From the NCBI GenBank assembly GCA_963667495.1, contig OY763426.1, positions 4,878,927 to 4,942,926 on the forward strand: a stretch of 64,000 nucleotides of DNA, in the 5' to 3' direction. The translations under genes and the position numbers were made by a program. The notes under the pieces are model-generated. The model searched no databases, was not told the DNA's origin, and was given only the letters and a program-made list of their open reading frames with translations. Within the stretch, counting starts at the first letter, position 1. Every line of letters starts with the position of its first letter. Source of the stretch: Candidatus Binatia bacterium (GTDB taxonomy: Bacteria > Desulfobacterota > Binatia > Bin18). Of this stretch, positions 29,788 to 48,408 are shown in pieces.

Positions 29788-29943
29788 CGCATTCTGTATC
29801 TACGCCTGCTTCCTGCCCCTCTCCATCCACAACCGTTTTCGCCGGACTTTCTCAAGGCGCTTGGGCCGACCGTATCCTTGCGGCAGTACGAGGGCTCGGT
29901 TAGGCTAGCAATCAGAGAATCGGACCTGAAGGAAACGGACGAC

Positions 29944-31302
29944 ATGCACAAAACGGCTTTTTCCATCCTTATTTGCGGCGTCCTGGTTGCCCTTGCACTC
30001 GGCGGGGTATTCACGAATGCTGCGCACTCGCAGGGCCAGGGTCTGCCCACTCGGGAAGATATCCAAGGGTGGATCAGCACGAATCTGACCACGCTGCCCC
30101 AATTCAAAGAAGGCGATGTACTGAGACAGGCCGACCTGGAGAAGCTGCGTCCCTTCTTGCCACCGCGCTATATTGACGAGTTTGATTTTCCTGAAGTCGA
30201 GTTTCATGTTGCACCCACGGGCCATTACCCGCCCCACCCCGATTATCTGGCTGCTACCGAGCAGTACGCTAATCAAACCCGCCTCGCCGCCGACGGGGCA
30301 CTTGAGAATTATATTGCCGGGCGGCCATTTGCCCAAGCGCTGATCAATCCCGACGACCCGACCTCAGGAGTCAAAGCCGCCTGGAACTTCAATTACCGCT
30401 GGCAGTACTACGGCATGAATGTCGAGCGCTATCTGGGTGCCCTCATTGCCAAGGGCGGCAGCGGGCCACGACTCTCCGGGTTCCCGGAGGACCTGATTCA
30501 GGGCGGAGGGAGAGCCATCCGCCATCTCGTTGCCCTCTACCAACGCGTCTACCACAATCATCTGGCGCAACTGTCACAGCAGGGTCATCTCCTGCCCCTC
30601 AATGACGCAGGGCGATTTGAGTACAAGGATTATGTCGAAGTGCTGGAGCCGTACGATGTCCGCGGACAACGGTTTATGATCTATCGCTATGATAACCCGC
30701 GGCAGCAGGACGACGCCTGGGGATTCCTGCCCCAATTGCGTAAGGTCCGCCGCCTGTCCACGCATGAGCGGGATGATTCCGTGGCCGGAACAGAAATGAC
30801 GCTGGACGATTTTACCGGATTCTCCGGTCGTATCCTTGACCATGAGTGGAAATTTCTGGGATGGAAAGTGTTGTTGCACGTCATGAACTCCCAGCACCCA
30901 TATGCCCGCTTCTACGGCCCCAACGGCTGGCTACCCAACGACCGCTGGGAGCTGCGTTTATGTGCCGTTGTCGAACAAACGCCGACCAGCACCCGCAACT
31001 ACAGCAGCAAAATTTACTTTTGGGATGCGGAGACCTATGAGACGGCAATGGTCCTGGTCTTTGACTCCGAAGGCAAGCTCTGGAAGGTCAACGACTTGCT
31101 GCACGGCTGGTCCGAAGACTCGAGTCAGGCCGAGTCGGACCGGGGCAAACAGGTGCCGCGTAACATCGGTTTTACGATTGTTGATGTCAAACAAGAGCAG
31201 GCTACGATTTTCTCCGCCTACACCATTGAATACCCCGAGGTTGATATGGAACACGTCGAAGAGCGTTACGACGTCAACATTTTAAGCCAGGGACGGCGGT
31301 AG
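29944..31302 (+). CDS. DUF1329 family protein (second paralog)
   Basis: Signal peptide MHKTAFSILICGVLVALALGG. ADGALENYIAGRPFA, LPQLRKVRRL and MTLDDFTGFSGRILDHEWKF parallel the 10807..12249 protein. Confidence 0.7.
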   Translation: MHKTAFSILICGVLVALALGGVFTNAAHSQGQGLPTREDIQGWISTNLTTLPQFKEGDVLRQADLEKLRPFLPPRYIDEFDFPEVEFHVAPTGHYPPHPDYLAATEQYANQTRLAADGALENYIAGRPFAQALINPDDPTSGVKAAWNFNYRWQYYGMNVERYLGALIAKGGSGPRLSGFPEDLIQGGGRAIRHLVALYQRVYHNHLAQLSQQGHLLPLNDAGRFEYKDYVEVLEPYDVRGQRFMIYRYDNPRQQDDAWGFLPQLRKVRRLSTHERDDSVAGTEMTLDDFTGFSGRILDHEWKFLGWKVLLHVMNSQHPYARFYGPNGWLPNDRWELRLCAVVEQTPTSTRNYSSKIYFWDAETYETAMVLVFDSEGKLWKVNDLLHGWSEDSSQAESDRGKQVPRNIGFTIVDVKQEQATIFSAYTIEYPEVDMEHVEERYDVNILSQGRR

Positions 31303-31309
31303 AGCGGAG

Positions 31310-32506
31310 TTAGACCACTCCATCCTCGCGCAACCGCCCAATCTCCTGCGTCGAATAGCCAAGCAACCCCGTCAAAACCTCGTCCGTATGCTCTCCTAAT
31401 AGAGGCGGCGGGAGGCGGAACTCGACGGGGGTCGCAGAGAGTTTGAGCGGCGAGCCGGCAAGCAGGACTTCTCCTGCGGTCGGATGCGGCATGGCCACGC
31501 GCATGTCGCGGGCAAGTACCTGTTGATCCGCAAAGACTTCATCAATGGACTGAATGGGCCCGCAGGCAATACCCGCAGCACGGATTTTTCGTAGCCAGCC
31601 ATGTACCGTGTCCGTGCTAAACACACTTTGAAGGAGAGGGATGAGGGTCTCCCGGTTTTGCACGCGGGCGGGGTTGGTTGAAAAACGTTCGTCAGCCGCC
31701 AGCTCAGGGCGGGCAATGAGCTGACAGAGTTTCTGCCATTGGCCATCGTTGCCGACGGCCAGACAAAAATAGCCGTCTTGGGCCTGAAAGGACTGATAGG
31801 GCACAATGGATGGATGAGCGTTGCCATATCGCCCGGGCTTTGTACCGGACACCAAATAATTACTGCCAGCATTAGCCAGCCACGCGACCTGGACGTCCAG
31901 CAGAGAGATGTCGATCGCCTGCCCCTGACCCGTTTTCGTGCGAGCCAGCAAGGCGGCCTGAATGGCATTGGCAGCGAACAAACCCGCGGTAATGTCGGTA
32001 ATGGCGACCCCGACTTTCATCGGCTCGCCCTCGGCCTCGCCGGTGATGCTCATCACCCCACCCCGGCCCTGAATAATGAAGTCATATCCGGGCAGGTCTT
32101 TGTCCGGTCCGGTCTGTCCGTAGCCGGTAATGGCACAATAGACCAGCCCAGCATTCTCCTGCTTGAGTTGTTCATACCCCAGTTGCAGCGACGCCATTTC
32201 CCCGGATTTGAAGTTTTCAATAAGCACATCGCTGACTCGGACGAGACGACGGATCAATTCCTTTCCAGCATCCGATTTGAGGTTGACGGTGATACTTTTC
32301 TTATTGCGGTTGGCGCATAGATAATACGCGCTTTCCCCGCCCGCAAACGGCGGACCCCAGGCGCGGGTATCATCACCGCTTCCCGGCCGTTCGACCTTGA
32401 TGACCTCGGCTCCAAGGTCTCCCAGGGTCATGGCGCAGAACGGCCCGGCTAATATGCGCGAGAGATCAAGGACACGAAAGCCAGCCAACGGTTGCGTCAT
32501 GCTCAT
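31310..32506 (-). CDS. CoA-transferase family III (CaiB/BaiF) protein
   Basis: LAGFRVLDLSRILAGPFCAMTLGDLGAEVIKVERPG..GDDTR N-terminal signature. Start set at MSMTQPLAG. Confidence 0.8.
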   Translation of the reverse strand: MSMTQPLAGFRVLDLSRILAGPFCAMTLGDLGAEVIKVERPGSGDDTRAWGPPFAGGESAYYLCANRNKKSITVNLKSDAGKELIRRLVRVSDVLIENFKSGEMASLQLGYEQLKQENAGLVYCAITGYGQTGPDKDLPGYDFIIQGRGGVMSITGEAEGEPMKVGVAITDITAGLFAANAIQAALLARTKTGQGQAIDISLLDVQVAWLANAGSNYLVSGTKPGRYGNAHPSIVPYQSFQAQDGYFCLAVGNDGQWQKLCQLIARPELAADERFSTNPARVQNRETLIPLLQSVFSTDTVHGWLRKIRAAGIACGPIQSIDEVFADQQVLARDMRVAMPHPTAGEVLLAGSPLKLSATPVEFRLPPPLLGEHTDEVLTGLLGYSTQEIGRLREDGVV

Positions 32507-32692
32507 TCCCCCACGCAGGTGGAGTATGCGCAAACAGCAGCCCCGCGCAATCCCCCACACCTCTTAACCGCGTACGCTGCAGAGTTCGTACCGTTGAGAA
32601 GAAACTGGTATAGTCAGCGAGTGGCTGTCTATTCGGGCAATGGAGGGAGTAGACAGTGGGCGGTTCCTGTGGATGAGGTGAGGAGGTTGTGG

Positions 32693-32902
32693 ATGAAGGG
32701 AACGTTTACCTACCAGTGTCAACAATGTGAAGGATTATTCACCAACGCTCCCATGGGGAGCTGTTCTTTCTGTGGGTCACAAGCCATAGTCTCTGTAGGC
32801 TGGTATCAATTGCCTGAGGATAAACGAAAGGGCTGGCTTGATCGTATTCATGGTCAGCCAAGCCTAGAGCTTGGCGAAGAGGCTACGCAGACTGCGAAAT
32901 AG
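32693..32902 (+). CDS. Small C4 zinc-ribbon protein, hypothetical
   Basis: CQQCEG...CSFCGS. GAGGAGG SD before the internal ATG. Convergent with res. Confidence 0.35.
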   Translation: MKGTFTYQCQQCEGLFTNAPMGSCSFCGSQAIVSVGWYQLPEDKRKGWLDRIHGQPSLELGEEATQTAK

Positions 32903-32909: not shown

Positions 32910-35552
32910 TCAGGCAGTACCGGTTTTCTCTATCAACTGCTGGTATACGTCCCGGTCGTTGAGTAGTTTTTCAACAACGAGGAAAAGGCCCCTGCCGTTG
33001 CTTTTTTGTTGCCATAATTCGCCGATGGTCCGTTTCTCTGCGGTATCCGCTCCATCAGCGATATGCGCCCCCTTATATTCGACAACGAGCAGCCGCCCAT
33101 CGTTCAACATCGCCACAAAGTCGGGGTAAAACTTATCCGTGGCGGTCGGTAGCCAGAATGATTCCGTGTGGCGGGCCACATTGCGAACCCAGTATTTCAC
33201 GCCAGGCAGACTGTCGAGAGCCTGAGCGCAACGCACTTCCTCGCCATCGTCTGCGCCGTCAAAGGCCGGAACGTGGTCCGCGCCTAAAAAGTGCTTCCCC
33301 GGCTTCCAACGCCCCCGGTATCGCCGCTGATCCTGATACATCCCAGCCTTGAATGAGAAGGCAGCGTCGAAGGATATTGCGACTTTTGCTTCGGGCGTAA
33401 AAAGACGCTGCTGATAGGCGCTCTTCCGTTCTTGCCGACGAATAGTGTTGATCTTGTCGCGTATCTTTCGCGCCAGGATAAACTTGCACCGCATGAGCGC
33501 GGCAATATGAATACCCCGTCCGATCATCAGGTGGTTGACGAGGTCGGAAAGCCACCTGAGCCGTTCGCTCTGCCTTATATCGTCCTGACGCACCTGCCGG
33601 TCGAGCCACAGGACCAGGGCTTCAGGCGTCCAGCCTTTCACGTCTATATTCAGCGTGCGTTGTTCTTTCTCGCTGGCGAACCGATAGGTGACGTGCCTGC
33701 CGTCAATGTCGATCTCAAAGCTGCGCGCGGTCTCACGGATCGTAAATTCCCCTTCGTCCATTTGCGGCGCATGGGTGAGCAGCGACCATTCGTGGGACTC
33801 CATGAACACGTCAGTATCGGCAAACTCAAGCTCCCCCTGGAGTTCTGACATAAGACGCGGCACATCGAATTGCTCGCCACATTCGGCAGGCGAGAGACGG
33901 TTGTGCATCAGCTTCCGATATTCCCCGAAGGACTCGTCAATCCGCCCGTGTTCCACCTCTGGAACCGCCTCACGGATGACCTTTTCCAAGGCGTCGTCCA
34001 CAGGGCCAACAATCTCGATCTCAACCGTCCCACTGCCGGTAGCGCGTACCGTCAAACCGTCTCGTTGAGTCTGCTTCAAAGCCGATAGCATCTCCGGTGT
34101 CGCTGTGAACGTATGCCGGAAGACGGGCTGGGAATTATCGCGCGGACCGAAAAGATCATCCTTGCCGCCCAACTCTCTCTGCATCGGCTCGATGTTGTCG
34201 TGTGCCTCGTCCTCCTCGAACCCCATCGCCACGAGCTTATCGGTCAATGCCCGCGCGGATGCCCCCGAGGACGGCTCGGACAGATAGGCATATGCCTGGT
34301 TCAAATCAGCAGCTCTGCGCCGCTTAGCGTAGGGCATGCGCAGCACCCGGCCCAATAGCTGTTCCACATCCGTCGCGCTGTGAATACGCGAGACCGAGCA
34401 AAATACATAGGCGAAGGAACAGTCCCAGCCCTCTTTCAGGGCTTCGACTGTGATGACGTATTCAATCGGACAACGCGGGTCGAACAGATCGATACCGTCC
34501 AATTCGCGCTGGTCGCCGGTGGCGATGGCAATCGCGTGGTCGGGAATGTGCTCGACATCCATCAGATGTTTTTTCAGCGCTTCGACAGTGATTTCCTGGT
34601 TCTTCTTCTGAGCCTGGAACAGGACGATAGGCCGGAGGTAGGCGGCGTCCCGTTTGGCAGCTTCAGCCAGAGACGCACGCTTAGCAATCGCACCGTTGAC
34701 TGCATTTTGCCAGGTATCGTGCTCGGACAGCATGATCGGCAGCTTGATCATATCCTCGCGTTTGAGTTCCAGGGCGGAGACGCTGTACAGGATATTCGAC
34801 TTGGGCCGGGGAGTGGCAGTGAACTCGATAATCGCGCACGGATTGACCCGCGTTTGCATCTCACGAGTCAGACCGGTCACCGCGTTGTGCGCCTCGTCCA
34901 CAATCATCAGCGGGAGGTGGATATGCAGCAGGTTAGCAAAGGAGAACTTGACGCCGCCACCCTCCATTTTCTCCAGACCCGGCGTAGCGTCTGGGACAGC
35001 GGAGAAATGCGGCTCCATTTCCTCGTGATGGGCATACACCTTGCGGCCTTCGGTGTTCGTCACCCGCAGCGTCTGAATGGTGCCGACCACAATACAGCAG
35101 TGGTCGCGCAGGTCGTGCGACCGAATGTGGGTGAAGTCGGCAATATCGAACACGCGTACCCGGCCATCAAAGCCTTCATCCAGCGCTTGCCGATACGGGT
35201 GGCCGGCGTTCTTCAAAGCCTCGACGGTTTGCGAGCGAATGGTCTTTGTCGGCACCAGCCACAGGACCAGCGGATAGTCTTTCTCTACCCAGGCGTCGCG
35301 CGCCACAGCAACGGCGTGAGCGCCCAATATCGTTTTGCCGCCACCGGTCGGCAGGCGCAGGCAGACGTACGGTACGTTCGGCAGGTCCGCGAGCGGAGCG
35401 CGATACGTTTCACCGTAGCGTCCGAGCCGGTCCGCATAGTCAGGTTCCTTGGTAATGGTTTCGTAGGCATTCTTCGGCCCGGCCATGCGGGCTTCTTCAA
35501 AGAAGCGGCGCAGAACGGCCAGCGCATCGGCCTGATATTGCTTCAGTTGCAC
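32910..35552 (-). CDS. res: Type III restriction-modification system restriction subunit (Res; SF2 helicase plus C-terminal PD-(D/E)XK)
   Basis: Walker A LPTGGGKT, DEAH-like MIVDEAHN, helicase C-terminal blocks, terminal FYPDFVAMLNDGRLLVVEYKG nuclease motif. GTG start. Confidence 0.8.
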   Translation of the reverse strand: MQLKQYQADALAVLRRFFEEARMAGPKNAYETITKEPDYADRLGRYGETYRAPLADLPNVPYVCLRLPTGGGKTILGAHAVAVARDAWVEKDYPLVLWLVPTKTIRSQTVEALKNAGHPYRQALDEGFDGRVRVFDIADFTHIRSHDLRDHCCIVVGTIQTLRVTNTEGRKVYAHHEEMEPHFSAVPDATPGLEKMEGGGVKFSFANLLHIHLPLMIVDEAHNAVTGLTREMQTRVNPCAIIEFTATPRPKSNILYSVSALELKREDMIKLPIMLSEHDTWQNAVNGAIAKRASLAEAAKRDAAYLRPIVLFQAQKKNQEITVEALKKHLMDVEHIPDHAIAIATGDQRELDGIDLFDPRCPIEYVITVEALKEGWDCSFAYVFCSVSRIHSATDVEQLLGRVLRMPYAKRRRAADLNQAYAYLSEPSSGASARALTDKLVAMGFEEDEAHDNIEPMQRELGGKDDLFGPRDNSQPVFRHTFTATPEMLSALKQTQRDGLTVRATGSGTVEIEIVGPVDDALEKVIREAVPEVEHGRIDESFGEYRKLMHNRLSPAECGEQFDVPRLMSELQGELEFADTDVFMESHEWSLLTHAPQMDEGEFTIRETARSFEIDIDGRHVTYRFASEKEQRTLNIDVKGWTPEALVLWLDRQVRQDDIRQSERLRWLSDLVNHLMIGRGIHIAALMRCKFILARKIRDKINTIRRQERKSAYQQRLFTPEAKVAISFDAAFSFKAGMYQDQRRYRGRWKPGKHFLGADHVPAFDGADDGEEVRCAQALDSLPGVKYWVRNVARHTESFWLPTATDKFYPDFVAMLNDGRLLVVEYKGAHIADGADTAEKRTIGELWQQKSNGRGLFLVVEKLLNDRDVYQQLIEKTGTA

Positions 35553-35578
35553 GACTCAGGCCCTCGCCTTAGGGGACT

Positions 35579-35776
35579 TCATATTTTCTTCGTACTTCCC
35601 GCCTCTCTCAGAATAGCGTTTGCCGTATGGCGGCTTTTCAAGTTGCGCGGAACCAGCAAAATCTTACCAGTTGTCAGGCTTTTCCACTTTTCGTGTGAAC
35701 CTTTTGCACTTTTCCAATACTCAAAATTAAGTTTTGAGATTTCTTTGGTGACCCTCTTGTAGAGACTGACCGCCAA
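35579..35776 (-). CDS. hicA: HicA-family toxin-like protein
   Basis: RVTKEISKLNFEYWKSAKGSHEKWKS...KILLVPRN...ANAILREAG matches the HicA consensus. The probable TTG start overlaps the stop of the upstream DUF1902 gene. Confidence 0.5.
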   Translation of the reverse strand: MAVSLYKRVTKEISKLNFEYWKSAKGSHEKWKSLTTGKILLVPRNLKSRHTANAILREAGSTKKI

Positions 35777-35777
35777 A

Positions 35778-36053
35778 TTATGCCACCGCCTTCTCAGTCT
35801 CCGGGCGCTGCCATACAATGGCCGGTATCAGTTCCTTGAGCGAATGCTCGGCAAGCTCGGAGGCGCTGCGATGATTCACCATGATGAGTTCAGGCGCTAC
35901 GTCCAGCATGATTGTTTCAAATTCATCCAGGGTAGCCGCCTCAATGTGCAAGCCCTCGATATCGCTTTCAGAGTAGAACACTTCTGCCTCAGCGTCCCAC
36001 ACAGCTTTCACTCGAAAGGTCTGCTGCATTCCGATATCCTCCCGTAGCGTCAT
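35778..36053 (-). CDS. DUF1902 / HicB-like antitoxin-type protein
   Basis: QQTFRVKAVWDAEAEVFYSESDIEGLHIEAATLDEFETIMLDVAPELI has the HicB-N/DUF1902 fold pattern. Sits between mod and res. Confidence 0.5.
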   Translation of the reverse strand: MTLREDIGMQQTFRVKAVWDAEAEVFYSESDIEGLHIEAATLDEFETIMLDVAPELIMVNHRSASELAEHSLKELIPAIVWQRPETEKAVA

Positions 36054-36067
36054 GATCCTTGGTCTTA

Positions 36068-36106
36068 TTCCCTCTCCCCTGGAGGGAGAGGGCTAGGGTG
36101 AGGGGG
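36068..36106. repeat. REP-like GC-rich palindromic element (CCCTCTCCCCTGGAGGGAGAGGG plus GGAGAGGGCTAGGGTGAGGGGG)
   Basis: Intergenic hairpin between mod and the DUF1902 gene. The 20-mer GGAGAGGGCTAGGGTGAGGG recurs (reverse-complemented) at about 41324-41343 and closely at about 59315-59333. Confidence 0.5.
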
Positions 36107-36130
36107 ATAAACACACTCAACCTCATCTCC

Positions 36131-37684
36131 TCACGTCCGGGCTTTCACCTCATACGGCATCTGCTTGAAGGTGACGCCAATCCTTTCCAAAGTCGCAGAG
36201 GCCAAGCGTGACTGTTCGCCATAGACCGTCAGCGGACCGTTGAAGCGCGCATGCTTGCGCTCAATCTCCTCCCGAATCATAGCAAGTGTGGCCCGCGTCA
36301 GCACATTACCACCATTCGGTCGCCTGTCGCCCAGGATGCCATTGTACAGCAGCGCATAGGCGTGGCTACCGTGCAGACCCAGGAAAGGTGAATCCCCACC
36401 TCCGTTCCACGGATGCCCGGTCTCGCTGAACCAGACATGGGCAGCCAGCACCGGAAAGCGGATGTCCGCTCGAATCTGCCCCGCCTCATCAAACACTGGT
36501 GGCCCGAGCCGGTAGAAACGAAACCCGCCCCCGCCCTGCCAACCCACACTTTTTGAGATGCCGCCCTGTTCGCCGTCAATAACCTTGCGCAAGCGGGGCA
36601 CGCAATGCGTCACTGCGTGCTCGCCCATCTCAATACCGATATAGCGCCGGCCCATCTTGTGGGCTACTGCCGCCGTGGTGCCGGAGCCGAGGAAGGAGTC
36701 GAGCACCAAGTCGCCGGGGTTGGTCGCTGCCTCAAAGATATATTCAATAAGACCTTCAGGCTTAGGAAAGGCGAATTTGTTCTGCAAGCCGAATAGCTCC
36801 ATACTTTGATACGTTCCGTGCTGCGTATAATGTCTCTCGATTATGGTTTGCGGCTTGCGTTTCCTTTCTTCGCCTCCCTCATCTTTGAGGTATTGCTTGT
36901 AAGAAACGACCGTTTTCCCTTTTCTTTTGGAAATCACCAACTCCCCGTCTACAAGCGCCCGATGGGAACGTTCTTTTGACCATTGCCACTGCTTTTCCGG
37001 CCAAATCTCTTCGCCGTTCTCAAGTGTAATCGGGTATCTAAGATTCGGACGATCATCCATGCTCGTAGTTGCCAACGGCTGCAAACGATACGGCCCTCTC
37101 TCCGCGAATTTTTCATCCTGATATTTGTAATACTTTCTCACGACATCGGGATCAGGAGGCAAGAACATCTCGGGGAATTTGCTCATGTCTTTTGTGTAAC
37201 AGAGGACTTCTTCGTGTAGGCCCACAAACCACTTCGCTTTGGCACCGCCACCGTAGCTTTTCTTCCAAATGAATGTGGTCAAGAAGTTTGACCTTCCGAA
37301 CACCTCGTCCATGATGACCTTGAGGTAGTGGGCTTCATTGTCGTCAATCGACACCCAGATTGACCCGTCTTCGGCCAGCAAGTCACGCAGGAGTTCGAGG
37401 CGCGGCCACATCATCGCCAGCCATTGTGTATGTTCGAGATTGTCGTCGTAATGCTCGAAGGCTGAGTGCGTGTTATACGGCGGGTCAATATAGATGCACT
37501 TCACCCGTCCGGCGTAGAACGGCAGCAACGCCTTGAGCGCTTCCAGGTTGTCACCCTGAATCAGCATGTTGCCCGTGTCCGGCTCCCCTGCCGACAGGTC
37601 AGGCGCTTCTTCCAACAGCCGATACGGCACGCGAGAGGCGGTGCGGAGGTCTTCGTCTCGGGTGAGCCAGTGGAGGATGGGCAT
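36131..37684 (-). CDS. mod: Type III R-M system DNA methyltransferase (Mod, N6-adenine)
   Basis: DPPY motif (CIYIDPPYNT). SAM-binding motif I region (the FxGSGTT-type motif) is present (VLDSFLGSGTTAAVAHKMG). The ATG overlaps the stop of the upstream pentapeptide-repeat gene. Confidence 0.85.
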   Translation of the reverse strand: MPILHWLTRDEDLRTASRVPYRLLEEAPDLSAGEPDTGNMLIQGDNLEALKALLPFYAGRVKCIYIDPPYNTHSAFEHYDDNLEHTQWLAMMWPRLELLRDLLAEDGSIWVSIDDNEAHYLKVIMDEVFGRSNFLTTFIWKKSYGGGAKAKWFVGLHEEVLCYTKDMSKFPEMFLPPDPDVVRKYYKYQDEKFAERGPYRLQPLATTSMDDRPNLRYPITLENGEEIWPEKQWQWSKERSHRALVDGELVISKRKGKTVVSYKQYLKDEGGEERKRKPQTIIERHYTQHGTYQSMELFGLQNKFAFPKPEGLIEYIFEAATNPGDLVLDSFLGSGTTAAVAHKMGRRYIGIEMGEHAVTHCVPRLRKVIDGEQGGISKSVGWQGGGGFRFYRLGPPVFDEAGQIRADIRFPVLAAHVWFSETGHPWNGGGDSPFLGLHGSHAYALLYNGILGDRRPNGGNVLTRATLAMIREEIERKHARFNGPLTVYGEQSRLASATLERIGVTFKQMPYEVKART

Positions 37685-39048
37685 CAGTTATCGCTCTCCT
37701 CGGGAACCTCTGACATGGCTTCGTTGTACTCGGCAATCCACTGTTCGGCTTCTTCGGCGGTGTAGGTTCCGGTAATGGCCCTACTATTTCCTGGCAGTTC
37801 ATTACTGGCTGGCTGGTCAATGTTCGGTGTCAGCCTTTCTCGAAACTGTTTTACTGCTCCATGGGGCAAACCTTCGACAAGGGAATCCAAGTGTCCTTGA
37901 CTCAGTCCGCCGGCGAAAATCGCTCCACTCAGATCGCTCTCTTTACCAATCTTCTCATTTATACGGTTTTCAAATGAATAGAAAATTTCCCTTTGGCTGG
38001 TGACCCCTTGTAGCTGGACTTCCCCAAGCGTAGCCGCTTGCAACTCTACTCCGGTAAGATCAGCCCCTTGAAATTGTGCCCCGCTAAGATGAGAGCCTTG
38101 CATCCGTGCATCACCAAGCATAGCTCCTTGGAACTGTGCAAAATGGAGAAGGGACCCTTGAAAATTTGCACCGGCAAGAAAGGCTCCCTGGAAACGTGCT
38201 TCGTTGAGAATAGCTCCTTGCAAATGCACCTCGTGGAGACTCGCCCCTTGGAAGTATGATCCACGGAGGTAAGCCACTTGTAATTGTGTCTCGTAGAGGC
38301 GAGATCTCTGCAACTGAGCCCCATCAAGGTCGGCTCCTGCCATCAGAGCCCATCTAAGATTAGCACTCTGTAGATATGCCTTGATTAGGTTGGCCTTTTC
38401 TAAACGCGCTCTCGGAAGATTAGCTCCATTCAGCCAGCTCTCCTGCAAATTGACATGAAGTCTGTTGAAGACTTCGTGCTCCTGTACGAACAGCAGGGTC
38501 AGCAGGCTTTGAATTTCCTCCGAAGGTTTCGACTTATACTTTTCTCTGTATTTGCTTTCACCCGTTGTCTGGCGGATATGGGCACAGAGAATATCCAGTA
38601 CGGTCTGACGTAGCTCTTTCGTATCTTCCGCCAGGTGGAACAGTTCGTAAGCCCCACCCAAACGTACAGAATCCGACTCATGCCCCAAGTGCTCAATGGC
38701 GTTTTTCAGGCGTTCCTGCCTCTGCCCCTGTTCGGTGTTCTGGTTAGCTTTCGCCTGTTCCTCCGCCGCGTTTTCCATGGCTTTGGCGCGTTTATTAGCA
38801 ATGACAGCCTGAATGGCGAGAATGACGCCACCCATGCTAATCCCCAGAAATTTTAGAGCCTCGTTTTTTTCGGATGCCCCTAAAATCTGAACAACATATT
38901 TCTCAGCACTTTCGCAGGACATGACCAACACAAAAGCGCTCAGCAATACGACAAGCACAATGCCGGAAAGGCCGATCAGAACGGTTGAAACCGGGTTCGT
39001 CTTGAACGCTGGGCCAAGACGACTCAGTAGACTTGAGAGAAGACTCAT
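37684..39048 (-). CDS. Membrane-anchored pentapeptide-repeat protein (paralog 1)
   Basis: Two N-terminal TM helices, a HEAT-like helical region, about 20 consecutive pentapeptide repeats (ANLxxAxLxxAxLxGAxL...), and an acidic C-tail ITGTYTAEEAEQWIAEYNEAMSEVPEESDN. Start at MSLLSSLL chosen by alignment with paralog 2 and the ATGA overlap with the upstream gene. Confidence 0.7.
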   Translation of the reverse strand: MSLLSSLLSRLGPAFKTNPVSTVLIGLSGIVLVVLLSAFVLVMSCESAEKYVVQILGASEKNEALKFLGISMGGVILAIQAVIANKRAKAMENAAEEQAKANQNTEQGQRQERLKNAIEHLGHESDSVRLGGAYELFHLAEDTKELRQTVLDILCAHIRQTTGESKYREKYKSKPSEEIQSLLTLLFVQEHEVFNRLHVNLQESWLNGANLPRARLEKANLIKAYLQSANLRWALMAGADLDGAQLQRSRLYETQLQVAYLRGSYFQGASLHEVHLQGAILNEARFQGAFLAGANFQGSLLHFAQFQGAMLGDARMQGSHLSGAQFQGADLTGVELQAATLGEVQLQGVTSQREIFYSFENRINEKIGKESDLSGAIFAGGLSQGHLDSLVEGLPHGAVKQFRERLTPNIDQPASNELPGNSRAITGTYTAEEAEQWIAEYNEAMSEVPEESDN

Positions 39049-39851
39049 CGTTTCACAACCTGCCTCAATAATTCCAGAGCGGATTCCGACTCCAACCAGT
39101 ACTTGCCGAACAATTTCCAATACGCATAGGCTTGGTCGGCTCCTCCGTGAGAAATATAGCCTTCGATCTGGGATTTCGGCCTGGGATGTCTCTTTTTCAA
39201 CAGCTCCCTGCCGACCAAGGGCAGCTCAGCAACACAATGCTCCAGCGCCGTCCGCGCCTCCTCGTCGCGTCCAAGACGCGCAAGCGCTAACGCCTCCGAA
39301 TAGAGGGTTTCGGGAGCAATGTCGTCCCGATACTTCCGGCAATGCGTAACAATTCTCGCTGGTGCGTTTTTTTCAAACCAACATTTCGGCAGCAGATACC
39401 TCACTCCCTGATTGTCGTTTGGGTTCACAGACAAAAGCCGTCTAAAAATCTCGATGGCCTCATCGTACCTGGCGTTGTGGAGATTCCACACACCGAGGCT
39501 GTGGTAGGCTCTCAGGAAGGGACGATTCTCCAACCACAGCCACTCCAGCCTCGCGGTTTTCCAGCTAAATTTCTGGGGAAGCGCGTGCAGTCCGATACCG
39601 ACGGCGGCTTGACAACAAATGTACGCTTCCGTCTCCCTTCCCTGCTCGCGGTAGATCAGCGAGAGATGATGAATTGCGTCTATGTGACGAGGACATTCCG
39701 CTACGATGGACTGGAGCATTTTTTCCGCGACTTCATCGTGACCCTTCTCCCAAATATCCAAGGCTTGATCGAACCTTTCAAAAATCTCAGGAGTGAAGGT
39801 CGAATCCTCCTCGAAACCCCAGTTGTTTTTTTCCATCTCCACCAGTTTCAT
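39045..39851 (-). CDS. TPR-like helical-repeat protein
   Basis: 268 aa of alpha-helical repeat composition (AYHSLGVWNLHNARYDEAIEIFRRLLSVNPND). GGAGGA SD. Its stop overlaps the start of paralog 1. Confidence 0.55.
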   Translation of the reverse strand: MKLVEMEKNNWGFEEDSTFTPEIFERFDQALDIWEKGHDEVAEKMLQSIVAECPRHIDAIHHLSLIYREQGRETEAYICCQAAVGIGLHALPQKFSWKTARLEWLWLENRPFLRAYHSLGVWNLHNARYDEAIEIFRRLLSVNPNDNQGVRYLLPKCWFEKNAPARIVTHCRKYRDDIAPETLYSEALALARLGRDEEARTALEHCVAELPLVGRELLKKRHPRPKSQIEGYISHGGADQAYAYWKLFGKYWLESESALELLRQVVKR

Positions 39852-39926
39852 AATGTTTTTCCTCCAGGATACACGGGCGACAGTGGACGAGGGATTCGTT
39901 TGGGGTAAATCAGTGTCGGGGGAGCA

Positions 39927-41288
39927 TCAGTTATCAAGCTCTGTCGGAACCTCTGACATGGCTTTTTTGTATTCGGCAATCCACTGTTCGGCTTCTTCTG
40001 CGGTGTAGGCTCCCGTAATGGCGAGGCTGTTTTCTGGTAGTTCACGAATTGCCGGCTTACCAATGTGAGGCTTCAGCTTCTCTCGCAATTCTTTCGCCTT
40101 CTCATCGGGCAAACATCCGGTAAAGGAATCCAGGTCTTCCTGGCTCAACTCTCCCTCAAAAATAATCCCGTTGAGGTCACTTCCTACGCCAACTCTGTTT
40201 TTCATTAGCTCTTCAAACGGAGGTAAAAGCCCTCCGCTTACGCTGCTGATGACCCCTTGCATCTTTGTCCCGTGTAGAACGGCCCCTTGCATCTTTGCCG
40301 CGCCCAAACTAGCCCCTTGCATCTCTGCCGCGCGCAGATAAGACCCCTGTAGTCGTGCAAGGCGCAGATCGGCCCCTTGCATCTTTACTCCCGAAAGATT
40401 CGCCTCTTGTAGGCGTGCTAGGCTCAGATCAGCCCCTTGCAGGCCCGCCATGACAAGATCAGTCTCCTGTAGCTGTGCTCCACCAAGCCTAGCCCCTTGT
40501 AGACGCGTCCAGGAAAGCTCGGCTCCTTGAAGGTTCGCCTCACGAAGATTAGCCATTTGCAGATGCGTATCGCTAAGGTCAGCCTTTTGTAGAGACGACT
40601 CGCTGAGATCAACCCCTTCTAACCACGCACCGGCCATAAAGGCGTTCTCTAAACGTGCCCCCCTGAGATTGGCCATGTCCAGCCAACTCCCCTGCAAGTT
40701 AATATGCAGCCCTTTGAAGACGTTATGCTCCTGTACGAACAACAAGGTAAGTAGGCTTTGAATTTCTTCCGAAGGTTTTGACTGATACTTTTCTCTGTAT
40801 TTGCTTTCACCCGTCGTCCGTCGGATATGAGAGCATAGGATGTCCAAGACCGTCTTGCGCAACTCTTTGGTATCTTGTGCCAGATGGAACAGTTCGTAAG
40901 CTCCACCAAGGCGCACGGAGGCATTGTCATGTCCCAGGTGCTCGACGGCGTTTTTCAGGCGTTCCTGCCGCTGGCCTTGCTCGGTATTCTGGTTGGCTTT
41001 TACCTGTTCTTCCGTGGCCTTGGCTTGGGCCTTTGCGGCCTCAGCCTGCGCGTTCGCGGTGTCCTCCAGCGCTTTGGCACGTTTGTAGGACATCAAGGCT
41101 TGCAAGGCGAGCAGGACGCCGCCCATGCCGATGCCGAGAAATTTCAGGATTGAGTTTTTTGTGTGTAAGCCTAAGCGTTCCCCTACCCACCCCTCACAGG
41201 TCTCACAGAACACGACGGACGAGAAGAGCGTCACCAACATGACGAGTAGGCCGACAAGGCTGTACTGGAAAATGAGAAAAAGACTCAT
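39927..41288 (-). CDS. Membrane-anchored pentapeptide-repeat protein (paralog 2)
   Basis: Same architecture as 37684..39048. The coiled-coil (NQNTEQGQRQERLKNA.EHLGH), HEAT-like and C-tail regions are near-identical to paralog 1. Confidence 0.7.
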   Translation of the reverse strand: MSLFLIFQYSLVGLLVMLVTLFSSVVFCETCEGWVGERLGLHTKNSILKFLGIGMGGVLLALQALMSYKRAKALEDTANAQAEAAKAQAKATEEQVKANQNTEQGQRQERLKNAVEHLGHDNASVRLGGAYELFHLAQDTKELRKTVLDILCSHIRRTTGESKYREKYQSKPSEEIQSLLTLLFVQEHNVFKGLHINLQGSWLDMANLRGARLENAFMAGAWLEGVDLSESSLQKADLSDTHLQMANLREANLQGAELSWTRLQGARLGGAQLQETDLVMAGLQGADLSLARLQEANLSGVKMQGADLRLARLQGSYLRAAEMQGASLGAAKMQGAVLHGTKMQGVISSVSGGLLPPFEELMKNRVGVGSDLNGIIFEGELSQEDLDSFTGCLPDEKAKELREKLKPHIGKPAIRELPENSLAITGAYTAEEAEQWIAEYKKAMSEVPTELDN

Positions 41289-41337
41289 CGCAGAGCACTG
41301 ACTATGAACTTATCTCACAATGACCCCTCACCCTAGC

Positions 41338-42567
41338 CCTCTCCCCCCAGGGGCTCAGGTCCCGACAGTTTTGGGTAAGATGGGGAGATGGGGGATGAAG
41401 GCGAAGTCGGCGGCTAAGGGGCGGTCAAGGGCGAGCCAGCGCGTGAAGAGGCGCAAGCCGAGTTGGAGGACGCTATGGCGCCAGCGTTTGCCGTACGTCA
41501 CTTCCCGGCGCAGGCGGGGGTGGCGAATGACCTGCGTGCCCACACTACTCATCCAGGCGGAGGCCAAGGCCAAGACGAGCCACAAGCGATTGGCGTGGGC
41601 GGGCGAGCGAATCTGGGAGCGGTGCCACTGCCAGCCGCCCGATTTCAAGTCCCGAAACGCGGCCTCTTCCCACATCCGCAGCCCATACCAGTTCGCCTGC
41701 GCCTGGGACCAATTGGTCAACAACAGCCAGGGCTGGGCATAGCGGCCTTGCCAGCGGCCCACGGCCCAACACGGGCGCCAGCCCCGTTTCTTGAACGCCC
41801 GCACCGCTCCCGCCCAGCGGGCGCCAGGTTTAGGGACCAGCGTCCCAAAGGCCACCTCTCGGCCTGCCACCTGAAGGCGGACCGTCCGCTGCACCCGGAC
41901 CAAGAAGAACCAGCCCAGCGCCTCAATGGCCGCCAGCAAGTCCGGGCTACAGCCAATCCCCCGGTCGGCTTGGACCAAGACCGGGCAGCCCGCCGGGACA
42001 TGCGGCGCGACTTGGTGCAGCAAGGTGCGAATCAAGGCCACTTGGCCCATCGGCCACGCCGTCTGGCGATAACACCACCACGCCAGCGGCAGGGCGCGCC
42101 CACGATAAGCCAGACTGACGACCATGACCTTGAGATGCGCTTGGAGACTGGTCTCATCGACCAGCAGCACGAGCGGGCCGGGGGAGTGGAGCCGGCGCAG
42201 AATCCAGGCCGTCAAGCCCTGCGCCCCGACGCGCCAATCGAGCCGCGGATTGGCCACAAACCGTTGGAGGCGGCGCTCCACCGTGTCCGGCTTGCCCAAG
42301 GTGGGCAGCGCTTCGGCTACCCCGCGTTGCGAACACCGCCGGGCGACCGCTACTCCCCAGCTAAAGGCTGCCCAGACTTTGGCCTGCGACTTGCGCACCT
42401 GGGGAATCTGGCGTGCAACCGTGTCCATCCACTGATATACTGCGCGCTGTTGACTCATGGGGACCTCCCGGGACCGTGGACTTGTGAGATGGCCCACCAT
42501 GCCCCGGCCAACCCGCATGAGTCAACGCTCACAAACTGTCGGGTCTTCAGCCCCCAAGGGGGAGGGA
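41338..42567 (-). mobile_element. IS element (DDE transposase, IS4/IS5-superfamily-like), about 1.2 kb, with imperfect terminal inverted repeats
   Basis: Terminal IRs GGGGCTCAGGTCCCGACAGTTT (about 41350-41371) and CAAACTGTCGGGTCTTCAGCCCCC (about 42532-42555). The transposase ORF ends inside the IR. The flanks look like two halves of a CCCTCTCCCC...GGGGGAGGG hairpin. Confidence 0.6.
41355..42458 (-). CDS. IS-element DDE transposase
   Basis: LVLLVDETSL (D1 region), LVQADRGIG (D2), WEEAAFRDLK (the Y-x2-R-x3-E-x6-K-like block of DDE_Tnp_1). Start at MSQQRAVYQW, or possibly the upstream M at 42518. Confidence 0.7.
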   Translation of the reverse strand: MSQQRAVYQWMDTVARQIPQVRKSQAKVWAAFSWGVAVARRCSQRGVAEALPTLGKPDTVERRLQRFVANPRLDWRVGAQGLTAWILRRLHSPGPLVLLVDETSLQAHLKVMVVSLAYRGRALPLAWWCYRQTAWPMGQVALIRTLLHQVAPHVPAGCPVLVQADRGIGCSPDLLAAIEALGWFFLVRVQRTVRLQVAGREVAFGTLVPKPGARWAGAVRAFKKRGWRPCWAVGRWQGRYAQPWLLLTNWSQAQANWYGLRMWEEAAFRDLKSGGWQWHRSQIRSPAHANRLWLVLALASAWMSSVGTQVIRHPRLRREVTYGKRWRHSVLQLGLRLFTRWLALDRPLAADFAFIPHLPILPKTVGT

Positions 42568-42590
42568 ATAGGACTCGTGCAACGGGACGC

Positions 42591-42818: not shown

Positions 42819-43043
42819 TCATCCGGTACGACGAGACCACGCTACTGCCTCATCAATGTCAGTCTCAGATAGCCCGAGTTCGGCCAGCTTGGCCCGCACG
42901 GCACCCTCCCGTTCGAGACGCACAGGTGTCAGCACGATGCAGCCGCTCTCTTCAGTCACCTCGAAATACTCAGTGTCTTTGAAATTGGACAACACCGCTT
43001 TCGGAAGGGTCAGTTGGTTTTTGGACGTGAGCCTGGCGAGCAT
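42819..43043 (-). CDS. AbrB/MazE/SpoVT-family antitoxin-like DNA-binding protein
   Basis: The MLARLTSKNQLTLPKAVL swapped-hairpin N-terminus is typical of AbrB/MazE. Confidence 0.6.
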   Translation of the reverse strand: MLARLTSKNQLTLPKAVLSNFKDTEYFEVTEESGCIVLTPVRLEREGAVRAKLAELGLSETDIDEAVAWSRRTG

Positions 43044-43045
43044 AA

Positions 43046-43300
43046 TTACTTCCCTAGTAAGGCAATGTCGTATTGACTCTGGAGTTCGAGCCAGAAACCG
43101 GGCCGGTTGCCGAAATAACAGCTAAGCCGCACCGCTGTCTCGGCAGTGATTGACCGGCGGCCATTCAAAATATCGGTGATGCGGTCGGAGGGCACCCCAA
43201 GGGCGAGAGCCAATCTATTGGCGCTCAGGTTACGCGCCTCAAGTTCGCGTTTCAGCAGTCTGCCGGGATGTGAAATTACGCACGCCATAGGTACCGCCAT
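43046..43300 (-). CDS. HigA-family (XRE HTH) antitoxin-like protein
   Basis: HPGRLLKRELEARNLSANRLALALGVPSDRITDILNGRRSITAETAVRLSCYFGNRPGFWLELQSQYDI matches the HigA consensus. No HigB-like ORF is evident upstream. Confidence 0.6.
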   Translation of the reverse strand: MAVPMACVISHPGRLLKRELEARNLSANRLALALGVPSDRITDILNGRRSITAETAVRLSCYFGNRPGFWLELQSQYDIALLGK

Positions 43301-43360
43301 ACTGAATAATTTGATCGGTATGGATGGCGAGGACATCCGCCAGGGTGAGATAGTCACGCT

Positions 43361-43588
43361 TCAATTTGCGAGTTTCTTATATAACGAGCCGAAACGGGCA
43401 TGACTCTTCTGGTAAGCGTCCAGCACATGTGTTCGTGCCTTTCCCTGCCGACGTTCTTCGAGAAGCGTCCTTACGGCTTCTTCAACAAGGGTCTGAATCT
43501 GGCACCCCTCGGCTTCCGCCAAAATACGCAGGTCTGCCAGCAGGGTGCTCTCGATTTGCGTTGCGAATTTCTCGCGGATTTGCGGCAT
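43361..43588 (-). CDS. Ribbon-helix-helix (ParD/CopG-like) small protein
   Basis: The about 75 aa MPQIREKFATQIESTLLADLRILAEAEG...LVEEAVRTLLEERRQGK has an RHH-like pattern. Start set at MPQIREKF. Confidence 0.4.
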   Translation of the reverse strand: MPQIREKFATQIESTLLADLRILAEAEGCQIQTLVEEAVRTLLEERRQGKARTHVLDAYQKSHARFGSLYKKLAN

Positions 43589-43641
43589 ATTCCTTTCCAC
43601 CTTTTCGACACAGTTACGATATCTTCTCGTTTCCTGAAACG

Positions 43642-44214
43642 TCAAGGCATCCGGCGAAACCAGTCCCGGACCGTGGCCAGCAGAGAAGACGGCGCGGATG
43701 GCGTGGTGGCAGGAGGGGCAGCCAGGCTGCGGCTCTCCTCCCACCACTCGACGTGAGTCAGGTGGAGTTGGGCGATGCGGGCGATGGCAGGAATGAGTTG
43801 AGTCGTGATGAACGCCTTGTTCACCGCGCTTTCAAGCAGCAGGTCTGTCTGAGCGATATAGTTCTCGGTGCTGGAACTCAGGCTTGAGATGATGGCACCG
43901 TCGGTCATACCGGGCACTGCTGTCTTCAGGGCGCTCCCCTCAAGCCGGGCTAGGGCTTTCTGGACGACGAGTCGGGTTGCGGAGTCAGGAGTGTCAACGA
44001 GAAAAATGAGGGAGAGATAGCGCAACGTCGAGCTGTGGGGCTTTGGCTGGGCAATGCGACACAGCCCGGAGAGCGCCTCGTTTCCGGAACGCTCCAGCGT
44101 GAACTCAAAGAACGCCAGCATTTGCTCGCCGGCATACAGGTCAATCAACTCCTGTCTGAGGTCGATGACGCCCTGCGGTCCCTGTCTATTCCCCGTGTCC
44201 TTTATTTTCTCCAT
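43642..44214 (-). CDS. Hypothetical protein
   Basis: 190 aa. No family recognised. Lies downstream of the amidohydrolase operon terminator. Confidence 0.35.
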   Translation of the reverse strand: MEKIKDTGNRQGPQGVIDLRQELIDLYAGEQMLAFFEFTLERSGNEALSGLCRIAQPKPHSSTLRYLSLIFLVDTPDSATRLVVQKALARLEGSALKTAVPGMTDGAIISSLSSSTENYIAQTDLLLESAVNKAFITTQLIPAIARIAQLHLTHVEWWEESRSLAAPPATTPSAPSSLLATVRDWFRRMP

Positions 44215-44239
44215 ACCTACGCCTCCGACGCTCGAAAGC

Positions 44240-44270
44240 GAAAAAAAAGGGCGCCCTTTTTGGACGCCCC
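44240..44270 (-). terminator. Rho-independent terminator candidate (minus strand)
   Basis: The minus-strand sequence GGCGTCC-AAAAA-GGGCGCC forms a 7 bp stem with one G-U pair and is followed by T8. Located 23 nt after the amidohydrolase stop at 44293. Confidence 0.5.
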
Positions 44271-44292
44271 GGTTTGTACGCTTGCCAGTCTC

Positions 44293-45396
44293 TTAGTCCA
44301 GGTTATACAGCTCGGCCACGTTGTCGTGAAGAATCCAGTTCTTCTCTTCTTCGGTGAGGTGGGCGGTGTGCTTTTCGAGTATTTCCTGCGACCACGGCCA
44401 GGTCGAGTCGCTGTGCGGGAAGTCGTTGGCCCACATCAGACGGCGCGGGTTGCACATATCTTTCATGCGGAACGCCACCCAGTCGTCCTGAAAGGTGGTG
44501 TAGATATGTTCGCTGAAATACTCGCTCGGCATCTTTGACAGTTCCTGGCCGGGTTTCAGCCAGTAGCGGTGCCGGTCGTAGGCATGATCCATGCGGTACA
44601 TATAGTGTGGCACCCAGCCGGCATCTGCTTCGACACACACGATTTTCAGTTTGGGGTTACGTTCAAACACGCCGCCCAGGATAAACGTGCCCATCAGGTC
44701 CTGGTTGCCCCGAATAATGGACAGGAAGCCGTTCAGCTTCGGTCCGCGCGGAGAGGAGCCGACCACATCGCTCCGGCTGGTGAGGATGTGAAAACTCAGC
44801 GGCATCTGCATGTCGATGGCCGCCTGCCAGAATACGTCGTAGAGCGGGTCGTCATAATCGGACACCTGAGGATTGCCCGGCATCATCACTCCGCGCAGAC
44901 CCAGCTCTTTGATCTTGCGCAGGTCGGCTATGCCCTCATCAACCGAACGCATGGCGGTCTGGCCCAGGCCGATCAGGCGGTCCGGATGGGCGGAGCAGTA
45001 TTCCGCGATCCATTCGTTATAAGCGTCAAAGCAGGCTTTTTTATAGTCGAAGTCGGAGTGATTACACAGCAGCATGCCAACAGTGGGATAGATAACCTCG
45101 GCGGCAACGCCGTCCCGGTCCTGGTCGGCCAGACGCGCTTCCGGGTCCCAGCCGCCACGGTGCAGGTCCTCAAACTTGGCACCGAACATAGCGAGGTCTT
45201 CGGCCTTCTGCCCGGCAGCGGCAACCAGACCCATGGGGACCGGCTGCTTCATGCCACTGATAACGAATAGATCACCCTTCTTCTCGTCGTGGATCATGTG
45301 CGGCGCGGTATCTTTATACTTCTTGTCAATACGATCCACATAGGTGCCCGGTGGTTCGGTGATATGCGAATCAGAAGAGATAATGGGTTTGAGCAT
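44293..45396 (-). CDS. Amidohydrolase-2 family protein (PF04909-like, ACMSD/metal-dependent hydrolase)
   Basis: N-terminal IISSDSHITEP (metal-binding His pair region), HIL...H...D pattern, about 367 aa TIM-barrel hydrolase. Confidence 0.8.
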   Translation of the reverse strand: MLKPIISSDSHITEPPGTYVDRIDKKYKDTAPHMIHDEKKGDLFVISGMKQPVPMGLVAAAGQKAEDLAMFGAKFEDLHRGGWDPEARLADQDRDGVAAEVIYPTVGMLLCNHSDFDYKKACFDAYNEWIAEYCSAHPDRLIGLGQTAMRSVDEGIADLRKIKELGLRGVMMPGNPQVSDYDDPLYDVFWQAAIDMQMPLSFHILTSRSDVVGSSPRGPKLNGFLSIIRGNQDLMGTFILGGVFERNPKLKIVCVEADAGWVPHYMYRMDHAYDRHRYWLKPGQELSKMPSEYFSEHIYTTFQDDWVAFRMKDMCNPRRLMWANDFPHSDSTWPWSQEILEKHTAHLTEEEKNWILHDNVAELYNLD

Positions 45397-45422
45397 GTAG
45401 TGCTTCTCCTTGTGTAGCGGCC

Positions 45423-48383: not shown

Positions 48384-48408
48384 TCGTCTTCCTCCTTTAT
48401 CGTCTCAG

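Follow-up and report, generated by a model that had tools for sequence, protein, structure and literature searches.

Why do genes for membrane-anchored pentapeptide-repeat proteins stand directly in front of a Type III restriction-modification (R-M) system? The question is raised by positions 32,910 to 41,288 of a 64,000-nucleotide stretch of the Candidatus Binatia bacterium genome (GenBank assembly GCA_963667495.1, contig OY763426.1, positions 4,878,927 to 4,942,926 of the forward strand), hereafter the window, in which two such pentapeptide-repeat protein (PRP) genes lie upstream of the Type III genes mod and res. An earlier reading of this DNA, made from the letters without database searches (the sequence-only reading), had proposed that the PRPs are built-in DNA-mimic regulators or sensors of the adjacent enzyme, or that they form a membrane-linked defence module together with it. 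We find here an intact Type III R-M operon with embedded cargo, situated in a conserved chromosomal hotspot of a Binatia-like genome. The PRP is coupled to the R-M genes through a 1-nt overlap with mod, yet related Mod-Res pairs exist without it. The interpretation that we prefer, tentatively, is that the PRP is a modular, self-contained, defence-associated membrane sensor or effector, co-expressed with the R-M system, and not a subunit of the enzyme or a DNA-mimic regulator.

Coupling of pentapeptide-repeat genes to Type III R-M genes

All seven genes of the block are on the minus strand, and the listing of open reading frames (ORFs) places them at the coordinates that the sequence-only reading had assigned. 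In the direction of transcription their order is PRP2, a gene for a TPR protein, PRP1, mod, two small ORFs and res. PRP1 (37684-39048, minus strand) encodes a membrane-anchored HEAT-like/pentapeptide-repeat protein of 454 amino acids, and PRP2 (39927-41288, minus strand) encodes its paralogue of 453 amino acids, to which it is 55% identical; the matches to Pentapeptide (PF00805; 4e-33 for PRP1 and 5e-36 for PRP2) score 113 and 122 bits for the two PRPs, against a cutoff of 20.2. The mod gene (36131-37684, minus strand) encodes a Type III N6-adenine methyltransferase of 517 amino acids that matches N6_N4_Mtase (3e-49) and, over residues 1-516, the PADLOC model MTase_III (PDLC03644, 6e-167). Its translation has the motif order of the beta class, DPPY (IYIDPPYNT) and then FLGSGTT. 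Downstream of mod on the same strand, across a 578-nt spacer that contains the two small ORFs, res (32910-35552) encodes a Type III restriction subunit of 880 amino acids, which matches ResIII (6e-16) and, over residues 2-872, the PADLOC model REase_III (PDLC03650, 7e-178). The translation of Res contains the helicase motifs LPTGGGKT and MIVDEAHN and a C-terminal, PD-ExK-like YPDF...VVEYKG. Since the profile matches are full length and the catalytic motifs are present in both proteins, the Type III system looks intact. The profile searches also bore out the earlier assignments to Pentapeptide, N6_N4_Mtase, ResIII and DUF1902, with scores above the Pfam cutoffs for Pentapeptide and DUF1902.

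The stop codon of PRP1 and the start codon of mod share a single base, 37684, in the sequence TGATG; the ATGA that had been read at this junction is incorrect. A Shine-Dalgarno-like GAGGAG lies 11 nt 5' of the mod ATG, within the codons for the acidic tail of PRP1. At the preceding junction the overlap of the TPR stop and the PRP1 start is ATGA at 39045-39048, exactly as had been described.

Scans of genome and metagenome collections yielded 44 PRP loci, to which L053, L056 and L059 were added through homologues of Mod or of the TPR protein. The expectation that homologues of the PRPs are linked to R-M or defence loci in other genomes was borne out: in about half of the ~45 homologue loci a Type III mod directly follows the PRP gene, in most cases with a 1-nt overlap. 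The gap between the two genes is -1 nt in L001, L003, L004, L005, L006, L011, L022, L023, L029 and L033 and +3 nt in L009 and L030. The 1-nt overlap is also found in L053 and L059, and in L056 the PRP is 5' of mod as well. The mod gene is slightly farther downstream of the PRP in L002, L010, L013, L015, L019, L025 and L028, while L016 and L017 either retain a mod fragment or reach the end of the contig.

In nine loci, including the window, the flanking genes are 85-98% identical, which indicates that these loci occupy one chromosomal hotspot in Binatia-like genomes. When syntenic groups were collapsed, some 12-14 independent contexts with linkage to mod and some 13 without it remained, and the former span Binatia, Nitrospirales/Nitrospira, Latescibacterota and Thermodesulfobacteriota. 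That the coupling of PRP genes to Type III mod exceeds chance and recurs over independent contexts is strongly supported. The recurrence makes the family a good candidate for a new accessory gene against phages. The PRP family as a whole has more than 2,400 matches among scored candidates, and its N-terminal module falls into 352 clusters (50% identity) at E <= 1e-30 and 1,363 at E <= 1e-10.

Architecture of the pentapeptide-repeat proteins

Two transmembrane (TM) helices, a HEAT-like domain and an acidic C-terminal tail had been proposed for the PRPs and are all present, while the repeats number about 31 and not about 20. In PRP1 the TM region (residues 17-85; 38794-39000, on the minus strand like all segments that follow) was delimited by hydropathy, conservation and an AF2 model, and consists of a variable TM1, a short loop and TM2. 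In the model a charged, Ala-rich helix, the stalk (residues 86-121; 38686-38793), continues TM2 and leads to a HEAT-like alpha-solenoid (residues 122-195; 38464-38685), the most conserved part of the family. About 31 pentapeptides (residues 196-350; 37999-38463) with the decapeptide consensus A.LQGA.L.. would form a quadrilateral beta-helix, and the protein ends in a conserved alpha/beta C-terminal domain (residues 351-454; 37687-37998), which is acidic with a net charge of -11.

The AF2 model of PRP1, which was built on 121 homologues, has a pLDDT (predicted local distance difference test) score of 92 overall and of 96-98 in the beta-helix. It places TM1 at residues 19-44 and joins TM2 and the stalk in a single unbroken helix of 61 residues (61-121). 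Four HEAT-like helices lie within residues 126-188, the beta-helix has a strand each five residues between about 200 and 350, and the C-terminal domain is alpha/beta. Foldseek matched the repeat domain to HetL, Np275/276, MfpA and Qnr. The N- and C-terminal domains correspond to no curated family in Pfam, NCBIfam or PADLOC and have no sequence match in the PDB.

Across the family, median identity to PRP1 is highest in the HEAT-like domain (84%) and lowest in the repeats (48%), whose span ranges from 105 to 285 amino acids (21-57 pentapeptides), mostly in steps of ~10 amino acids. TM2 has the near-invariant residues L65, G69, G73, G74 and Q80 and a GxxxG-like motif. A cluster of Lys and Arg residues right after TM2 suggests, by the positive-inside rule, that the main body of the PRP is cytoplasmic. 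The length of the stalk is quantised. In all 96 homologues in which both anchors (the end of TM2 and QERLK) could be located, the distance between them is 18, 25, 32, 39 or 53, values that are all 4 mod 7, and the stalk of PRP2 is exactly two heptads longer than that of PRP1. Because insertions and deletions in the stalk are limited to whole heptads, it appears to be a register-bound coiled coil, and we infer that the stalk is oligomeric.

For the one pair compared, PRP2 of the window and its counterpart in L004, the ratio of non-synonymous to synonymous substitution rates (dN/dS) is 0.20 overall, 0.065 in the HEAT-like domain and 0.31 in the repeats; the same two loci give values of 0.05 for Mod and 0.15 for Res. 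The overall value for PRP2 indicates that the gene is kept by purifying selection.

Regulator, partner, passenger or separate defence gene

The quadrilateral beta-helix is the fold of MfpA, Qnr and AlbG, and the PRP gene adjoins a gene for a DNA enzyme in an operon. Both points would suit a PRP whose beta-helix mimics B-DNA and either binds in the DNA cleft of Mod or Res, to inhibit or regulate the enzyme from within its own operon, or serves to decoy anti-restriction proteins. We consider this very improbable. By residue count, which is not a surface map, the repeat domain of PRP1 has a net charge of 0 and that of PRP2 one of -2; for 121 homologues the values lie between -17 and +18, and their median is 0, so that an acidic, DNA-like surface is not a conserved property of the family. 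A DNA-mimic charge pattern as a conserved trait was rejected on these neutral and variable counts. The C-terminal domain is the sole part that is consistently acidic (median net charge -10). Moreover, the PRPs score 24-45 bits with the Qnr and MfpA equivalog models of NCBIfam, against cutoffs of 240-500, and the DNA mimicry that the sequence-only reading had put forward receives no support from either result. The number of repeats varies from 21 to 57, related R-M systems exist without a PRP, and mimicry would leave the membrane anchor and the coiled-coil stalk unexplained. Although they share the right-handed quadrilateral beta-helix (Foldseek E 2e-7 to 1e-5), Qnr, MfpA and AlbG are soluble dimers of ~200 amino acids with an acidic surface that act on gyrase, whereas the PRPs have ~450 amino acids, two TM helices, a stalk, HEAT-like and C-terminal domains and a neutral or variable charge. 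Ocr and ArdA are small, highly acidic inhibitors of R-M encoded by phages and plasmids; the PRP, in contrast, is not small, is acidic in its C-terminal domain only and has its gene in the same host operon as the enzyme.

Six relatives of Mod, with 70-82% identity, were examined for the gene upstream. In four of them (P0140, P0158, P0160 and P0136; Mod 70-77% identical) the upstream slot is empty, and in P0127 it holds a PRP with a 1-nt overlap. In the sixth, P0167 (L055, from the Erythrobacter metagenome-assembled genome JAVJPT010000005.1), the slot is taken by a GmrSD Type IV enzyme (4028-6001; PADLOC mREase_IV 7e-84), whose gene ends on the start base of a mod that is 70% identical to ours. 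As this geometry is the same as that of PRP1 and mod, the slot 5' of this mod lineage appears to accept different defence genes. There are also intact PRPs without R-M genes within 10 kb. Among the loci of the hotspot, the PRP does not follow Mod and Res in its degree of identity: in L011 Mod is 94%, Res 89% and the PRP 58% identical, and in L004, whose sole PRP is the orthologue of PRP2, the values are 95% for Mod and 84% for PRP2. This decoupling suggests that the PRP is accessory and exchangeable. The empty slots, the single GmrSD, the R-M-free PRPs and the allele swaps together speak against the proposal that the PRP is a built-in regulator of the adjacent enzyme.

Many members of the PRP family have defence or mobile-element genes around them. 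Between PRP and mod, L002 has a full-length PifA-type KAP NTPase (6e-112), a family-mate of which is in the same place in L028, and L015 has a fused SIR2-APAZ-pAgo (E = 0). Unlinked PRPs have other neighbours: Dsr2 (1.5e-158) in L016, a Type IIG enzyme in L038, an integrase in L039 and L040, and an uncharacterised 1,512-amino-acid AAA/HEAT protein in L020 and L021. In L036 (MKWU01014603.1, 70-4271), likewise unlinked, the gene for a full-length HmaC (E = 0) overlaps at its stop codon by 4 nt with a PRP homologue. This is the only tight coupling seen outside Type III R-M, and the short contig hides the rest of the Hma system. More distant relatives (~30% identity), with the same layout of TM helices, HEAT-like domain and repeats, are carried on plasmids of Anabaena, Nocardia and Rhodococcus, where the neighbours include AbiEii, integrases, TPR with trypco2, DUF262 with HEPN and a C5-methylase, and TIR.

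Two further ideas about the role of the PRP were discarded. Phage homologues were found neither in IMG/VR, searched with two family patterns, nor in INPHARED, searched with the N-terminal module, and on this ground a function in prophage anti-defence or superinfection exclusion was rejected. A Polbeta nucleotidyltransferase gene directly 5' of the PRP in L008 was considered as a HalB-like partner; it is not conserved at L007 or at other loci and looks like an ordinary MNT/HEPN-type module.

If the PRP is a self-contained sensor or effector, as we tentatively prefer, it would oligomerise through the GxxxG motif of TM2 and the coiled-coil stalk, and the variable cytoplasmic beta-helix with its cap would be the surface that senses a cue from the phage. 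From there the signal would run along the rigid stalk into the membrane helices, and the outcome could be membrane perturbation, abortive infection or a block at the site of DNA entry. The PRP would thus act as an extra layer beside R-M. Several points weigh against this interpretation. The involvement of the PRP in defence rests on guilt by association, and none of the 5027 models of PADLOC-DB 2.0.0 matches PRP1, PRP2 or the TPR protein at E <= 0.01. No pore-forming or enzymatic domain was recognised in the PRP, and its N-terminal module has no significant match in the PDB and no likeness to HalA or other channels. Some of the unlinked PRPs adjoin ordinary genes (MR_MLE, MacB/FtsX, cadherin-like). 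The estimate of purifying selection comes from a single sequence pair, and the neighbour-joining tree of the conserved domains, in which R-M-linked and unlinked PRPs are interspersed, is without bootstrap values. The loci were found by means of peptide patterns derived from PRP1 and so represent close relatives only (at least 40% identity). Finally, the strong bias towards the site immediately 5' of mod, together with the one case 3' of HmaC, may instead reflect a real functional partnership with DNA-modification systems.

Such a partnership would make the PRP a dedicated companion of Mod-Res, and elsewhere of Hma, which tethers or positions the enzyme at the point of phage DNA entry on the inner membrane, or gates its activity. 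The 1-nt overlap with mod in more than 12 loci and the presence of the mod ribosome-binding site inside the PRP tail favour stoichiometric co-expression, and the sole other tight coupling is to HmaC, which likewise belongs to a helicase/methylase system. In addition, the conserved acidic C-terminal domain and the HEAT-like domain could serve as docking surfaces, the rigid stalk and the rod have a geometry of quantised length, and a membrane sensor coupled in space to a cytoplasmic helicase-nuclease would resemble Zorya and Kiwa. However, Mod-Res pairs whose Mod is 70-77% identical lack a PRP, intact PRPs occur away from Type III genes, and PRP alleles have been exchanged apart from Mod and Res. 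Other complete defence genes sit between PRP and mod, and GmrSD has occupied the same overlapping slot. We regard a dedicated partner as unlikely, while the broader alternative of the sequence-only reading, a membrane-linked defence module with the Type III enzyme, is plausible. We would also call it unlikely that the PRP is a new kind of sensor, anchored in the membrane and carried on a coiled-coil stalk, that physically couples inner-membrane events (phage DNA entry, for example) to DNA-modification immunity (Type III R-M and Hma), as a spatial 'antenna' comparable to Zorya or Kiwa. It would then recruit or license the helicase-nuclease at the site of injection, with the hypervariable beta-helix as an evolving recognition surface.

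The PRP might also have nothing to do with defence. It would then have an unrelated membrane role or be a selfish passenger of mobile islands, involved for example in exclusion, addiction or maintenance. It would hitch-hike in variable hotspots, and its junction with mod would be kept through the common descent of a mobile PRP-mod-res cassette. Many of the linked loci lie in one hotspot and so are not independent; the islands also carry insertion sequence (IS) elements, toxin-antitoxin pairs and integrases; there are housekeeping genes among the neighbours; and the PRP itself has no match among the defence-specific hidden Markov models of PADLOC. On the other hand, at least 12 independent contexts are left after the collapse of syntenic groups, and the interleaving of linked and unlinked PRPs in the tree makes a single inherited cassette an insufficient explanation. 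Full-length and very strong PADLOC matches are frequent among the neighbours, and the PRP gene is under purifying selection. A role outside defence seems to us unlikely as well, and a self-contained membrane sensor or effector remains the interpretation that we tentatively prefer.

Full-text literature searches found no paper that joins pentapeptide-repeat proteins to Type III R-M or describes the PRP family, and neither the family nor the arrangement is covered by a model of PADLOC, Pfam or NCBIfam. The arrangement appears to be undescribed and to be a variation on accessory defence genes embedded in R-M operons. PrrC, whose gene lies within the hsd operon of the Type Ic system EcoprrI, is an anticodon nuclease that is soluble and has an ABC-ATPase-like domain; it is seen as a second line that acts once restriction is countered and is dispensable for the R-M enzyme. 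The PRP is similar in being a non-R-M gene that is inserted in an R-M operon, co-expressed with it and dispensable for the enzyme. It differs in that PrrC is soluble and belongs to a Type I system, whereas the PRP has two TM helices and a beta-helix, contains no recognisable catalytic domain and lies 5' of a Type III mod. The ZorA tail of Zorya and KwaA of Kiwa are membrane-anchored, with a long, length-critical cytoplasmic coiled coil or rod, and are coupled to DNA-targeting effectors. The likeness of the PRP to these is one of geometry and operon context only, as it has no homology to them, no MotAB-like motor and no KwaB-like partner.

In the study of Payne et al. (bioRxiv 10.1101/2024.01.29.577857), genes nested inside Hma, BREX, DISARM and Type I R-M operons, or attached to these, frequently prove to be new defence genes. 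The PRP that overlaps the HmaC stop codon in L036 fits this 'guilt-by-embedding' pattern. However, the candidates of that study (the PDC and HEC models) are included in PADLOC 2.0.0 and none of them matches the PRP or the TPR protein; its text (10.1101/2024.01.29.577857) does not contain 'pentapeptide', and its lone 'type III' refers to a DRT system. HalA of Hailong (Tan et al.) is a membrane-anchored oligomeric effector with a cytoplasmic ligand-binding domain, one variant of which has pentapeptide repeats. The PRP shares with HalA the membrane anchor and, with that one described variant, the repeats; it differs in having no sequence or fold similarity to HalA or to channels in the PDB, no Ion_trans or IRK match in Pfam, and no conserved HalB-type nucleotidyltransferase beside it.

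Type III R-M is usually viewed as a two-gene unit, and here a large, unannotated protein family is repeatedly joined to the first of the two genes across several under-studied phyla. If the PRP is defensive, it would be a new membrane-associated immune component with a previously unused combination of folds (two TM helices, coiled coil, HEAT-like domain and pentapeptide beta-helix), and 'guilt by embedding' would apply to Type III systems too. A stalk quantised in heptads and a rod that grows in decapeptide steps offer clear, testable handles on structure and function. If the PRP is not defensive, the locus still shows the 5' junction of mod as a recombination hotspot that stacks cargo genes upstream of a restriction operon.

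Probable turnover at the mod junction and the surroundings of the operon

Directly after the PRP2 stop codon, alignment revealed a degenerate remnant of the 5' end of mod (39867-39926, minus strand; GATAACTGATGC...). This stretch represents the initial 60 nt of mod in diverged form, with an alignment score of 14 compared with 5.7 +/- 2.0 for shuffled sequences, and none of 2000 shuffles scored as high. The remnant indicates that PRP2, too, formerly stood at a PRP-mod junction, and that new cassettes enter at this junction and push older copies upstream. PRP paralogues would thus be stacked 5' of mod by recombination at the conserved PRP-3'/mod-5' junction. Tandem PRPs 5' of mod are also found in L009, L013, L019, L028, L053 and L059. 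In L019 (7952-13401) three to four PRP copies or fragments follow one another before mod, and in L053 (2537-3892) the copy farther from mod is fragmented into small ORFs and the one next to mod is intact; these copies suggest turnover, with the mod-proximal PRP being the active one. In L056 (6878-8541) the PRP 5' of mod comprises two separate ORFs (233 and 319 amino acids) and its N-terminal TM module is tandemly duplicated, which points to decay of this copy or to a faulty assembly. Over the last ~30 codons of PRP1 and PRP2 (37684-37780 and 39927-40023), third positions are 0.83 alike at identical residues, compared with 0.2-0.8 elsewhere. This is suggestive only, and hints at gene conversion or at a constraint at the nucleotide level, for example from the mod ribosome-binding site.

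The gene between the two PRPs (39045-39851, minus strand) encodes a TPR protein of 268 amino acids (TPR_2 1e-12), which belongs to a compact family with 389 matches. In the window, L028, L056 and L059 it stands ahead of PRP and Type III genes; these four loci belong to two hotspots. Homologues elsewhere are located in a conjugative-element/AbiE region, beside VapC and in a toxin-antitoxin island. As it accompanies PRP and Type III genes in these four loci only, the TPR protein is an occasional companion of the PRP and not a core component.

The block had been described as an acquired island of slightly lower GC content, bounded by an IS element and a REP-like hairpin. Its GC content is indeed low in the PRP and TPR genes (37-41 kb, 0.51-0.53), whereas that of mod and res (0.56-0.58) is as in the rest of the window. 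Of these two boundaries the IS element was confirmed and the REP-like hairpin was not, as the other end shows no more than a 10-nt inverted repeat and a terminator-like hairpin such as would be expected by chance. The element (41332-42572, minus strand) is of the IS4 family, with a transposase gene at 41355-42518 (DDE_Tnp_1; transpos_IS4_2 8e-31) and 40-nt imperfect terminal inverted repeats (41332-41371 and 42533-42572) that are 73% complementary. It lies 44 nt 5' of PRP2, where the syntenic loci have 126-145 nt of intergenic DNA after a HigA-like helix-turn-helix gene, and it may have replaced or supplied the promoter of the operon. Between the IS element and the conserved flank (42819-43747) there are small ORFs that resemble toxin-antitoxin or regulator modules. 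They include a gene for an HTH_3 protein (43046-43357), 93% identical to the gene 5' of the PRP in L001, and after it an ORF of 74 amino acids (42819-43043). The flanks (28600-32900 and 43651-48462) are 85-98% identical to those of L001, while Res is 84%, Mod 69% and the PRP 62% identical. This difference suggests that the island is a fast-evolving or often replaced hotspot within conserved synteny. Scans of the whole window for Rfam families and tRNA genes gave no matches, and intergenic scans for promoters and terminators gave the same counts as shuffled sequences.

The two small ORFs between mod and res are a DUF1902 (HicB-N-like) ORF (35778-36053, minus strand; 2e-7) and its partner, a HicA-like ORF (35579-35818, minus strand). 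DUF1902 scores 31.5 bits against a Pfam cutoff of 22. The assignment of the second ORF to HicA, made from the sequence-only reading, falls short of the Pfam threshold (HicA_toxin 1e-4; 22.8 bits against a cutoff of 27), and an NCBIfam search gave no match for the pair. The real start of the HicA-like ORF is probably downstream of the TTG. The HicA-like ORF is 82-90% conserved in L003, L005 and L011, and the DUF1902 ORF is 90-92% identical in L001, L003, L005 and L011. The spacer between mod and res is itself a slot for cargo, which holds the HicA-like/DUF1902 pair here and in three syntenic loci (82-92%). In L004, L025 and L028 it holds instead a gene of ~300 amino acids from a single family, the L004 copy of which matches DUF3800 of Pfam (3e-16).

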